A DNA stretch of 64,000 bases from Tricharina praecox (Eukaryota): positions 682,001 to 746,000 of the forward strand of contig NW_026250412.1 in NCBI RefSeq assembly GCF_024521635.1, given 5' to 3'. The notes beneath the pieces were generated by a model. That model searched no databases, was not told the DNA's origin, and saw only the letters and a program-made list of their open reading frames with translations. Position 1 is the stretch's first letter, and each line of letters opens with the position of its first letter. A program made the position numbers and the translations under genes. Below, one piece after another: positions 30,227 through 35,680 of this stretch.

Positions 30227-32751
30227 TTACGCGGCCATATAATGTTTCGTTTTCTACCACCCCGCCGCATTAGCCCTCCCCCCCCACCATCGCAACCCAG
30301 GAAAACTTACATTCTTCAAAACCCCCGCCTGCCCAACCGCACGGGTAAAAATCTCGCGGTACTGCTCGATACACTCCTGAACAACCGCCTGCTTAGTCAT
30401 GGTGCCCTCACAGATCTTTTTCATCTTCTCCTCCATCTCCTTGCGCAGGAACGGCTTCGACAGCGAGTTCTCGAAGCCGATCTCGTCGTACCCCTCGATC
30501 AGCGCGATACCTAGGCTGCTCGGGACGAACTCCTCCGTGCCTCCGCCGCCGCTGCTGCTGCCTGTGGCGGCTGCGCCGCCACGGCCACGCCCGCGCCCCC
30601 GCCCGCGACCGCGCCCAGCTGGCGCGTCGTCGGCTAGTGGGGCTGCACCGGCTGCGCCGGCGCGCCCTTTGGGACGCGTAAAGACGTATTCGCGGTCTTT
30701 TATCTTGGTGATGTGGTCAGCCATAGTGGCGTCTGTGCCGATGCCGTTGACGTCCATGAGGCCGATGAGTTCGGGCTCGGTGAGGAAGCCTGGTGCGGTG
30801 GTCTTGCCCTCTGTGATGTTCGCCTCCGTGGGGATGAACGTCTCGCCGATGGTGAAGGCCGGGAGCTGCTGTGAGGACTCCCATCGGTCGTACGGGTACA
30901 CGTCGAGGTAGTTGCGCGCGAGGACTTGGAGTCCGCTCGCGTAGAGGGATTCAGAGCCCCACTGCAGGGAAACTTTGCTGCTTTGGCCGATCGCGTCCAG
31001 ACTGCAGCACGCCAGGAAGCGTCGTGTGATGAATTCGTATACCCGCCGCTCCGTGGCTGAGAGCGTCGTCGGCGCTACGAACGCTACGGGGTGGATTGGA
31101 GGGTGCGCTTGATCGTTATGCGGGCCGGTGCGCGGTTGCGAGAAGCCGCCGTTCACGAGTCTTCATGCTGTGTTAGATAACGTAGGTAGCGAAAGTGGGG
31201 GCGAGGGCATACTGGGTTGCGAATTGGCCCCATTCGTTGCTGGCGGTTTGCTTTTGTACCAGCGCTTGTAGGTCCATGCCGCGGTCGAACTGGTCGGTCT
31301 CTGTACGGGGATAGCTGATGAAGCCTTGAGTGTACAGTTTTTCTGCGACCTGGATGGAACCATGTTAGACACGGAAGGGAGGTCATGGGATGAGAGGAAA
31401 CTGACCTCCATCACTACTTTGGATGTCAAGCCTAGGAATCTACTCCCCAGCTTTTGCAGCTCAACTGTGGTCAATGGTAATGGTTTCCTAGTCGTCCATC
31501 ATCAGCTTTCGTAACTTGAATTGAGAGAGTGGCATACCTACCATTTCTTCGTCGGCTTCGTGTTGACATCCGTGACCTTCGCCGTCTTTGCCTGCAGGCA
31601 CCTTTCAAACAGAATGACAGTCATCATGCGATCATAGAGGACATTGCGATCCCAATTGAAGTTGACATTAACCTCATCCTTCCTATGATTAACTTTGATG
31701 GACCAAAACGGCTCGGGGACAAAATTCTTAACCCTCCTAAACCGATCCACCACAAACCCAAGGGTCGGGAACTGACAGCTGCCATAGCTAATGATCCTAT
31801 CCTCGAGGCCAGGAATGCTCTGCAGCTGCAGTGTCTGCCATCTTGTAAACGCCGCGCCAATCCTTAGATCCAGCTCCGTTCTTGCGGCCACAGCCGCCGC
31901 CTGGTTCTCGTCGAGGTTTATTGGCCGCTGCGCAGCAGCAAGAATGTGGCTGCGCTCGATGTTGCTGAACTTCGCCCGCTTCACCTGCAAGCGAGGGTTC
32001 ACCCCCAGCGCGATGTCCCGCACCTCCGCACCTATGTACTCCCCCTCCCGGTCGCAGTCGGTCCAGATGAACAGCGCCAGCGCCCCCCGCGCGTACGTTC
32101 GGATGTTTTCGGCGACGTCGTTGCGTTCCTGTCATGTGCGCCGTCAGTATCTCTACAGAAGGTGGAGAGGGGGACCAACTTTGATCAACTGCTCAGTCGG
32201 CGCATCAAACAGCTCTCCGGGGTGACAGGAGTGCCACTTCCTATAGTCGCTAGTAAAGTCCCACTCGACGGTATGTCCTAGCACAGAGGTCATGACGACA
32301 TTGCAGTGGCCCCACGGCGCGGGGAACGTGTATGTGAACTCGTAGTTCTTGACATACTTGTTCTGGGTGGGTCTCTAGGGAATTCAGTATATGAACAACG
32401 AGGGTTGGGGGCGTCGTAACGGACAGCTGTGAATTGGCCGCCGCTGAGGTGCCCCGCCACGGCTTTGGCGATCGAGGGCTTTTCGGCTACACAGAGGATC
32501 TTTCCGGGCATGCTGGAGGAACGGAATGCTTTGGTGGTGGGAGAGCGAGGTGCTTTGGTGGGAGCACGAGCTGCTTTGGTGGGAGCACGAGCTGCTTTGG
32601 TGGGAGAGCGCACTGCTTTGGTGGGAGAGCGCACTGCTTTGGTGGGAGAGCGGGCTGCTTTGGTTTTGATATCTCTTCGGAGGATAGTCAATATCAGCGG
32701 ACGATGGGCTGCGGGCTGGCGGAGCGCGATTCGAACGCCGTAGAGGTGCAT
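30227..32751 (-). CDS. top3: DNA topoisomerase III (type IA), multi-exon; conserved start at 32511, in-frame upstream AUG at 32751
   Basis: TOPRIM motif ILCVAEKPSIAKAVA, IWTDCDREGEYIG, DLRIGAAFTRWQT, SYGSCQFPTLGFVV, catalytic-Tyr region GFISYPRTETD, AHPPIHP and GIGTDAT. Last exon KTKHYMAA* at 30253-30227. Confidence 0.95.
32527..32665. repeat. 21-bp coding tandem repeat (~6 copies) encoding (A/V)RSPTKA / RAPTKA heptads in the Top3 leader
   Basis: Units such as TGCTTTGGTGGGAGAGCGCAC repeat in frame. Confidence 0.92.
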
Positions 32752-32801
32752 TTCATAAACTCTATGACAGTCTGGTTCACAAGTGGGGAGACGTGAAATG
32801 T

Positions 32802-32832
32802 TAAAACGCGCCCTCACGTGATCACCGCGTTA
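32802..32832. promoter_or_regulatory. MCB-like CGCG cores and a CACGTG E-box just upstream of top3
   Basis: Sequence TAAAACGCGCCCTCACGTGATCACCGCGTTA. MBF-type sites are common at fungal DNA-metabolism genes; function here is inferred. Confidence 0.4.
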
Positions 32833-33206
32833 AGTGACCAATGGGAATCTAGGGTATATTGCTGCCGAATAGCATTCGGCCTTTCTTCCAGCAGTAGTTA
32901 CTCCTACAGACATCCGTGAGAGAGAAGTGCTCATTGCCCAGGCAATCCGAACTCCATCCTCACTCGAAAGGAAAAAAAGAAGAGGAAAACAAACAATAGA
33001 CAAAAAATCATAGCCGTCGCTCCGTAACACCCAGCAAAAAGCAGATTATCAAGGAAACCAATTGACGTAGAAATACAGCTCAGCCCCCAGGTAAGGATGA
33101 GAAAGACGAAGCAATAGGAGATGAAGAAAGGAAAAAGAGAAATCAGAAAGAAAAAACCCTGACATGTGAAGTACCTGGACATGTGCGTTCAATTAAATGC
33201 GCAAGT

Positions 33207-35680
33207 CTAATTCCTACGTCTCTTCTTGTTCGCCCTTCGGCCCTGCATGTTGTCTTTGCAGAGGGGACAGAACCACTTGATGTTTCTAAAATCAGTTCCT
33301 GGGCTGACCCCGACACAAGCAAGGTGGAACCACTCCTTGGGACACTGCTTGCCTGTCAGCTCTGCTTTCCGCGGTACACAATTGAACAGGAGGTACTTAC
33401 ATTGCCATTATCGCAAGCTATCATGGTTCCGTCGCTGACCTTGTCGCACACGCAGTATGGGTTGAGATCTTCGCCCTTGTCATCGGCGTCGGCAGTATCT
33501 CTACCACTCTCTGTCTCTCCGCCATGCTTCTTTCTTCGTACACCAGTGCCGGGACGTTTCTCGGCGGGCTTCTTTCCACCGGTCACTCTACCAGAACTTA
33601 CGGGAGTACCAGAGTTGGAACGTTTGTGGGAGCTAGACACTACAAGTGGGGGCGGAGATGTGGCGGAAACAACTGAGCTGCGTTTTGGGCGTTGGGGAGG
33701 AGGGACTGAGGTGCCGGGCGGTCTAGATGGCGGCCTTGTTGAGTGCCTCTTGCTGGTACGGTTTGGAGGTTTGGACGGTGCCTCACCATTGATGCTGCTG
33801 TTAACATTACTGGTAGAAGTAGCAGTGATAGCATCTGATGGTTCGTCGATATCGGGGACGTCTGAGAGTTCGTCGTCGGATTCTAACGATTTCTGTCGCT
33901 TGGCAGCCTCTGCAGCCTCGGCAGCAGCTTTCGCGGCTTCGGCTTCGGCTTCGGCTTCGGCTTTCTCCTTCGCCGCCTTTTCCTTAGCAACTCTCTCTTT
34001 TTCAAGCTTCTCCTGACGCTCCTTGTCGGCCTTTTCTTTGGCGGCAGCAGCAGCAGCAGCTTTAGCTTTAGCTTTTGCCTTGGCTTCCGCCTCCGCTTTA
34101 GCTTTAGCTTCGGCCTCTGCCTCAGCCTCCGCTTCGGCCTCAGCCTCAGCTGCAGCCTTCTCCTCCGCCTCTCGCTCCAACCTCTCCTTGGCTAGTTTAG
34201 CGGCTTCCTCTTCTTCCTTCTTCTTCCGACGCTTTGCTTGCTGTTCTTTGCGCTGGCGCTCCTGTTCTTCCTCTTGGAGCTTCTTCTCAACTTCGACGGG
34301 ATCCAAGCCTGAGCGTTCGGCTTCACGTGCGCGCTCCTTCTTTTCCTCTTCTCGCTTGCGTTTCTTGGCCCTATTAAGACGCATTCCCTTATTTTCGCGA
34401 GCACCGTCACCATCGTCAGGAAGGATTTTCTGTGGGTCGCCGATGCCACCATCCTCCGGACCGATGAAGACCTCCGGCTTTCCCTCCCACTGGTCCTTGA
34501 AGTTGTCCTTGTTGTTGGGACCTCTGTCCAAAGCTTCGAGCTCACGGACAATCATCGTTACCGAGGGAGTCCATCCGGCGTTCTTCTTCATCCGCTTCCT
34601 CAGCCGAGCCAGCTCCTCGTTAGTGAGTTGGTTCCATGGTAACTGAGCGTTCGGGATGACGGTGCCGTCTGGATTTCGAGCTGGCGCACCTCCGGAAAGC
34701 AAGGGATCGGCGTTCGGGAGCTTTGGCGCCCGTTTGATGGCGAATCCTTTCTTTTTCTTGCTCGTTCTAGCCGCGTTATGGAGAGCCGGAGTTTCAGGTA
34801 GATCCTCCCATCCGCCTTCGTCGTCCTCAATGTCTGTCTCGTCATCCCCCCCCAGTTCGGCTGCTGGAGTCACGGGCTTCTTTAGTGGTCGCCGCGACGG
34901 GGGAGGACGGCTGTGTGGGGTTGCTCCCAGCCGGGGTCGTCCGCGGCCGCGAGGAGTGGACTGTGGTGTTCGTTGTGGCGAGGAGGAATCAATCTTTTGA
35001 TTGACACGCAGGTTTATTCGCGGCGGGTACGGGTGCTCGGGTTTCTGTTTCGGTGGCCTCTTCTCTTCCGGCGTTGGATCTCTGGACGGAATAGTGATCG
35101 TACCAAGCTTGCCGTGGATCGCTACGATACGCGAGTGGTGAAGTTCGACCTGTCGCCGTCAGCCGTGCCCAAACCAATTGCATGTCCCCGAGAGCCTCCT
35201 ACGTGTTCCAGCAATCGTTGGGCCTCCACCGTAGCCTCCCGCGCCGCACGCATGAAGTCGTTCCAGCGCTGCGTGATCAGGTAGCGAATCTCCATCTCCT
35301 TGTCGCTAGCCGACGCCGATTCCATCGCGCGCAAACCGTTGACGCCATTCGACAACTGACCGCCCGCGGCCGGCCGAATCGCAGATCGCCTACGCGCAGC
35401 CGAGAGGTGGGCGAACTCCCTGAGGTACCCATCCAGCTCTGTGCGTGCTGCTTCGCGGCGCCGGTGAAGGTCGCGGATGCGCCAGAGACAGCGGCTGATG
35501 TCGCTCGGGAGGTACTCGGTGTCTGCACGCGCCTCCGTCGTTCCAGTCAGCTCAACCAACCAACCAACCCAACAGCCATGACGCGGTGGCGGGGGTGCGT
35601 CACGTACAATCGATAAACTCCCTGACAACAGCATCCGTGTCAGGGTCCTCGGACGCAGGTTTTGTGTCGGACTCTGACAT
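33207..35680 (-). CDS. ING-family-like PHD finger chromatin protein (ING N-terminal helix, AT-hook-like motif, coiled coil, PHD); at least 3 introns
   Basis: Spliced N-terminus DPDTDAVVREFIDYTEYLPSDISRCLWRI, PRGRGRPR, RLRKRMKKNAGWTPS, and PHD PYCVCDKVSDGTMIACDNGN/CPKEWFHLACVG...KWFCPLC split by an intron. Confidence 0.85.

Follow-up and report, generated by a model that had tools for sequence, protein, structure and literature searches.

Human TOP3A is made from two in-frame AUG codons: as set out in an excerpt of one report, initiation at M1 gives a form with a mitochondrial targeting sequence, and initiation at M26 gives the nuclear form (PMC12585908). Drosophila TOP3A likewise possesses two in-frame AUGs and dual nuclear and mitochondrial isoforms (excerpts of PMC12585908 and PMC6514783), and the review among these excerpts calls yeast Top3 'predicted' mitochondrial (PMC6514783). 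In yeast, the isoform ratio of Pif1 is set by leaky scanning between two in-frame AUGs (in an excerpt of PMC11229318) and that of CCA1 (Cca1/TRNT1) through alternative transcription starts (in an excerpt of PMC12718117). No report of a mitochondrial Top3 isoform in filamentous fungi was found in the literature searched. The subject of this work is the Top3 gene of Tricharina praecox, which lies in the 64,000-nucleotide stretch analyzed here (contig NW_026250412.1, positions 682,001 to 746,000; "the window", to which all coordinates refer). It presents an in-frame ATG (32749..32751, minus strand) upstream of the conserved Top3 start at 32511. By analogy with animal TOP3A, we propose a long isoform with a mitochondrial-type presequence beside a short one for the nucleus, a reading that the sequence and its relatives place at about an even chance.

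Comparison with the described systems shows both likeness and difference. As in human and Drosophila TOP3A, insofar as the excerpts describe them, members of the same enzyme family carry two in-frame AUGs around a short basic segment, and the conserved Toprim domain begins right at the downstream AUG. While the human leader in the excerpted account has about 25 residues, that of T. praecox has 80, two thirds of which are a tandem heptad repeat; it shares no sequence similarity with the animal presequence and is known here from sequence alone. The C-terminal zinc fingers of animal TOP3A are lacking in fungal Top3, according to an excerpt of PMC10969213. A presequence between two in-frame AUGs is a feature of yeast Pif1 and Cca1/TRNT1 as well; these are different proteins, and their isoforms and localization, as given in the excerpts, were demonstrated experimentally, while here they are inferred. 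The dual-isoform view of the Top3 in the window is, by comparison with related loci, partly supported.

The gene spans 30227..32751 on the minus strand, as defined by joints in RNA contigs, spliced translation, Pfam matches and homologues. Six introns interrupt it (plus-strand coordinates 32375-32424, 32128-32178, 31487-31540, 31347-31402, 31161-31212 and 30254-30310). Five of them appear as GT..AG joints at identical places in the X2 and X3 contigs, and the sixth in X2 only; since both sets of contigs skip the introns at identical places, they derive from spliced RNA. The spliced coding sequence (CDS) counts 734 codons from ATG 32751 (long form) and 654 from ATG 32511 (short form). Exon 3 (195 residues) matches PF01131 Topoisom_bac with 87.8 bits (cut-off 35.1) and PF01751 Toprim with 25 bits (cut-off 23.1), is 78% identical over its full length (100% coverage) to 'DNA topoisomerase III' of Wilcoxina mikolae and Trichophaea hybrida (Pezizales), and retrieves 2522 proteins at E <= 1e-40. 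From these domains and homologues, the gene product is identified as a type IA DNA topoisomerase III, and its source as a Pezizales-like ascomycete; among public sequencing runs, the best match to the DNA is a soil metagenome, and no matching run is recorded as RNA. The conserved exon 1, MPGKILCVAEKPSIAKAVAGHLSGGQFTA (32425..32511, minus strand), starts at ATG 32511, which opens MPGKILCVAEKPS and has A at -3 (tccagcATGc). Near the C-terminus, at about 30590-30640 (minus strand), GRGRGRGRGRGRG forms a (GR)n tract, after which comes a run rich in G and S; RGG-rich tracts of this type are also present in fungal Top3 homologues.

The upstream ATG (gaaATGc, G at -3), the candidate start of the long isoform, opens a reading frame of 153 residues (32290-32751) with 80 open codons before ATG 32511. 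From its N-terminus the leader consists of MHLYGVRIALRQPAAHRPLILTILRRDIKTK, the heptad repeats and the six codons AFRSSS (32512..32529, minus strand), which adjoin the conserved Met of MPGKILCVAEKPS; endings of the R-(F/Y)-x-S-S/K type are seen again ahead of the conserved Met where other fungal Top3 sequences are extended. Codons 2-31 (32659..32748, minus strand) form the non-repeat part, which is basic and hydrophobic and contains a block shared with the relatives. Read in the Top3 frame, the repeat (32535..32664, minus strand) gives (A/V)R(S/A)PTKA heptads; it has a period of 21 bp, 6.2 copies, 91% matches and a score of 190 in Tandem Repeats Finder. The first-pass annotation of this stretch, made from the letters alone, had described the in-frame AUG with its 80-codon leader, the conserved start with A at -3, about six heptad repeats, and an out-of-frame AUG at 32756 with a 20-codon upstream open reading frame (uORF) ending at 32694; all of these were recovered. 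The leader contains 20 K/R and a single D/E among its 80 residues, and acidic residues are also scarce in the corresponding leaders of two relatives (0 of 37 in locus L005 and 1 of 33 in locus L031). In the non-repeat part, which offers 29 codons only, GC content by codon position (.66/.43/.64) resembles that of the CDS (.58/.45/.73), and the codon-usage score is highest in frame 0 (0.03 vs -0.32 and -0.22, again for 29 codons only). The Pfam scan of the leader returned no family above cut-off; a match to HV_Gp350_C-term (18.7 bits, cut-off 26.4) was dropped as a low-complexity match. Among the hits of protein searches with the leader (12 and 43), none matches the repeat leader, and the matches lie on exon 1 onward (17-50% of the query).

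An in-frame upstream ATG with an open frame is by itself not rare, and it is the relatives that supply the evidence beyond chance. Metagenome contigs scanned for a degenerate exon-1 pattern yielded 37 loci, of which 26 are distinct after removal of 8 near-duplicates and 3 with short upstream sequence. The nearest by BLASTN over the gene are L005 (about 78% identical to the window; exons 82%) and L031/L035 (about 76%; exons of L031 79%). In these loci an in-frame ATG aligns with 32751, and the leaders comprise 80 (window), 37 (L005) and 33 (L031) codons. All differences in length are multiples of three (129 and 141 nucleotides for the window; alignment gaps of 12, 3 and 3 nucleotides for L031), and the three leaders have in common the block (H/R)(R/A)P(L)IL(T/A)(I/F)..R..(I/V)(K/R)TKA. 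The leader is thus neither absent nor frameshifted in these close relatives, which keep both ATG and frame, and the idea of the first-pass annotation survives this comparison. Counted from the ATG, the window and L005 are identical at 59 of 96 nucleotides in an ungapped alignment (mean 26.2 and maximum 42 in 5000 shuffles), while only 14 of the 60 nucleotides directly upstream of the ATG are identical. For the same pair, exons agree at 1099 of 1337 positions and introns at 83 of 147 (about 57%), with 29 gap columns. The onset of similarity at the ATG, together with a leader free of indels of the neutral type, is the main argument for this ATG as a start codon.

In the proposed scheme, translation from AUG 32751 would yield the 734-residue form with a basic, acid-poor and presequence-like extension of 80 residues. 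We infer that this extension directs part of the Top3 into mitochondria, where it would be wholly or partly removed, and AUG 32511 would give the 654-residue nuclear form. How much is made of each could be set by ribosomes that scan past the weaker upstream AUG. The bases at -3 of the upstream and the conserved AUG are G and A in the window and C and G or G and A in the two relatives, so that the upstream AUG is the weaker one in all three species, as expected if part of the ribosomes scan past it; between 32750 and 32511 there is no ATG in any frame. Alternatively, the ratio of the two forms could be set by transcription that starts on either side of 32751, which is conceivable. If the scheme is true, automated gene models would overlook a functional N-terminus wherever they begin at the conserved Met.

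The principal rival, which we regard as possible but rather improbable, takes the 240 nucleotides as a plain 5' untranslated region (UTR) and the array as a UTR minisatellite, with Top3 made only from ATG 32511. Transcripts would then begin at 32751 or further downstream, or initiation at the upstream AUG would be rare, and the similarity to L005 and L031 would be that of core-promoter or 5'-UTR sequence; in this detailed form, too, the rival seems to us somewhat unlikely. The absence of ATG from 32511-32750 suits it, as a scanned UTR should be free of them. Several observations in the leader itself favor it and weigh against a translated presequence. Frame 2 of the leader is as free of stops as frame 0 in the window, L005 and L031, so the open frame alone says little. 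Differences between the window and L005 fall 15/8/14 on the three codon positions, 12 of 32 residues are identical, and 5 of 25 changed codons are synonymous (counted by reading the alignment); purifying selection on the peptide is thus weak at best. Out-of-frame ATGs occur inside the leaders of both relatives: the frame of that in L031 runs past the main ATG, and that in L005 has 4 codons, which is a poor fit with pure leaky scanning. While the composition of the leader fits a mitochondrial presequence, its amphipathicity is not above that of shuffles: for each of the three leaders, a fraction of 0.38-0.47 of shuffles of the same composition attains the observed maximum of the helical hydrophobic moment. 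The core of the first-pass annotation, a long and a short isoform from two in-frame AUGs, is supported by the upstream ATG and frame kept in two relatives, the similarity that sets in at this ATG, the basic leader, the weaker -3 base and the basic extensions of other fungi; the putative mitochondrial targeting finds no help in the hydrophobic moment.

Annotation and distribution add to these opposing points. The six nearest named Pezizales orthologues examined are all annotated from the conserved Met. Among 125 annotated sequences surveyed, the core motif lies at most 6 residues from the N-terminus in 102 and further in for 3 (at positions 13, 76 in Morchella sextelata and 122 in Podospora pseudopauciseta); the search pattern was unmatched in the other 20, which include truncated models, variants and the query itself. 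In the set of 26 distinct loci, which was collected blind to the leader, an open in-frame ATG at least 20 codons upstream is present in 3, and the more distant L016 has a 4-codon extension only. A start called at the conserved Met is, for its part, no proof against an upstream ATG, since P0126, which resembles exon 1 and the start of the intron of L005, is called from MPGK as well.

The UTR reading meets its difficulties in the alignment. It must account for the retention of the ATG in three species, each time at the matching alignment position, with similarity that begins there (59/96 vs 14/60), for 0 indels in 96 nucleotides vs 29 gap columns per 147 intron positions in the same pair, and for length changes that are all in frame. 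The strong bias of the composition against acidic residues also speaks against it, as do conserved extensions of like kind in other lineages (see below). RNA data bear on part of the question. In both runs the contigs follow the genome without a joint from exon 1 through ATG 32511 and on into the repeat, up to 32600 in X2 and 32580 in X3; the repeat is therefore in the mature messenger RNA and is neither promoter nor intron. The contigs cannot show the transcript start and they break inside the repeat, so they have no bearing on the transcription of 32751. Among the RNA contigs listed, none covers 32601-32846, and the depth in bins 32694-32820 is 2.26 (X2) and 0 (X3). A piece of X6 at 32623-32728, labelled 'DNA?' and of doubtful nature, was left out of account. 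A 5'-UTR intron behind a TACTAAC-like block in the leader was considered and rejected, as no good branch or donor site was found in the window or L005 and no RNA joint was seen.

The region upstream of 32751 is short. A conserved block with GATCACGTGAGGGCGCGT (32785..32827, minus strand; 79% identity over 43 nucleotides by BLASTN) is a candidate promoter element, and its end lies about 54 nucleotides from the upstream ATG in the window and about 52 in L031. This proximity is a further point for the UTR reading, as it leaves room for a transcription start downstream of 32751. On the far side, the RNA contigs of the upstream neighbor have their 3' ends within 32847..32884 (minus strand; X3 at 32847 with an adapter-like loose end, X2 at 32884), and about 96 nucleotides are left between the neighbor's RNA and ATG 32751. 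The conserved block and the neighbor's RNA ends thus confine the Top3 promoter to about 100 nucleotides. The block contains a CACGTG palindrome flanked by ACGCG-like motifs; it is shared with L031 and, on reading the alignment, was not found in L005. We take it to resemble E-box and MluI-cell-cycle-box promoter elements.

Extensions of like kind were seen elsewhere in fungi. When 1.84 billion representative proteins were compared with a profile built from the three leaders and exon 1 (A1), 284 matched at E <= 0.001, and 150 of these were listed; the counts that follow are among these listed matches. The hits are mostly short exon-1 fragments that read into intron 1, they are not phylogenetically independent, and the presence of the leader in the profile biases which fragments reached the 150, a bias that lessens their weight for the presequence reading. 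Among the matches listed, 146 contain both the core motif and the conserved Met; of these, 90 begin at that Met, 9 are longer by 1-9 residues, 4 by 10-19, and 43 by at least 20. When the 46 extensions of at least 15 residues are compared with 137 intron read-through tails, the content of D+E is 4.9% vs 8.5% (Fisher p = 2e-6) and that of K+R is 16.3% vs 10.3% (Fisher p = 7e-10). Net charge is at least +3 in 37 of these 46. Within the final 14 residues of the listed extensions, an R-x-[FYL]-x motif is present in 8 of 46, vs 10 of 109 intron tails, which is no clear difference. Two pairs keep both start Met and length: P0140 and P0151 are identical at 21 of 33 extension residues without gaps vs 5 of 21 in their intron tails, and P0144 and P0186 are identical at 25 of 43.

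Two of the annotated proteins merit comparison with the window. Top3 of Morchella sextelata (P0018) is annotated with an extension of 71 residues and no acidic residue among them. That of Podospora pseudopauciseta (P0010) has 118 additional residues in a low-complexity stretch rich in T/K/S/P, which recalls the repeat of the leader described here. Both extensions begin, like that leader, at an in-frame upstream ATG; they are gene-model predictions that cannot be aligned with the leader of the window, and sister species of such long models, for example Morchella conica, are annotated from the conserved Met (P0026). A bolder form of our reading holds that an unannotated mitochondrial presequence, begun at an upstream AUG, is widespread on Top3 of filamentous ascomycetes, and that this species has added to it an H1-like SPTK minisatellite, which may be retained after import as a tail for DNA binding or phospho-regulation; we consider it doubtful. 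Were it true broadly, fungi would share the animal-type use of one TOP3 gene for both the nucleus and mitochondrial DNA, and the N-terminus would be truncated in most gene models of fungal Top3.

The repeat raises a different possibility for a translated leader. The 21-bp unit has 5 matches in the 64-kb window, all of which are inside the array, and 0 in 100 shuffles. Its heptads include 3 full S-P-x-K sites (SPTK), 2 APTK and 1 SPTT, and the last copy carries an in-frame insertion of 3 nucleotides. The motif S/T-P-x-K/R is the consensus of cyclin-dependent kinase (CDK) sites, and S-P-x-K resembles DNA-binding motifs of the SPKK type. The leader could then be a basic, histone-H1-like (S/T)PxK tail on a nuclear long isoform, providing DNA affinity or CDK-dependent regulation. 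The three SPTK sites, the A/K/P/S/T-rich composition and a hydrophobic moment in the N-terminal part no greater than that of shuffles would agree with such a tail, to which we nevertheless give little credence: the repeat and its SPTK are absent from L005 (SPSP in their place) and from L031 (none), only the N-terminal block is kept, and this conserved part is non-repeat and has features of the presequence type, in a leader that matches no family above cut-off. The CDK or SPKK motif that the first-pass annotation had seen in S-P-x-K is accordingly unlikely to have a conserved role.

From these comparisons, the array is best read as a species-specific, in-frame 21-bp minisatellite. In L005 and L031 its place is taken by the short linkers ASPSPV and AAAPTLT, respectively. 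Under the presequence reading, the array would have expanded from such a short linker following the conserved ..TKA block. Its spread would be tolerated since, in a presequence or linker, the constraint is on composition and not on exact sequence. An in-frame minisatellite within a presequence, if true, would show how loosely such signals are constrained. The X2 contig piece that ends in the repeat (32425-32600) differs from the window by 4 letters, with no differences elsewhere in that contig; that organism may have a different order or number of the repeat variants.

A further proposal is that of the first-pass annotation by which the out-of-frame uORF (32694..32756, minus strand), whose ATG lies 5 nucleotides upstream of the in-frame ATG, damps the long form: the ATG and its 20 codons do exist and overlap the long-form start, and ribosomes translating them would terminate at 32694, with 32511 as the sole site for reinitiation, but the context of this ATG is poor (T at -3) and it has no counterpart within 150 nucleotides (L005) or 120 nucleotides (L031) upstream of the aligned ATG, so that a functional damper is very improbable.

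Two groups of related loci offer further observations. In L005, the roughly 64 nucleotides directly before the upstream ATG include an intron-like stretch of 56 nucleotides. Its donor, GTACTC, is weak; it has a perfect branch site (TACTAAC) and a T-run, and its acceptor TAG lies 8 nucleotides before the upstream ATG. If this candidate intron is real, the transcript would start further upstream and would have to contain the upstream ATG. The Top3 locus represented by L003, L007 and L019, whose exon 1 is Choiromyces (Tuberaceae)-like, presents 70 open in-frame codons upstream of the conserved Met with no ATG, ending in ..KYAIHTRAPA; an extension might start there at a non-AUG codon.

The upstream neighbor of Top3 occupies 33207-34591 (minus strand), with an intron at 33345-33400 and its stop codon at 33207-33209, and is syntenic in L031. 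Its first exon alone matched no Pfam family. The predicted protein has a long E/K/A-rich stretch of low complexity and a Cys/His-rich C-terminal end (...WFCPLC) that is split by the intron, and which we presume to be an ING-type PHD finger.

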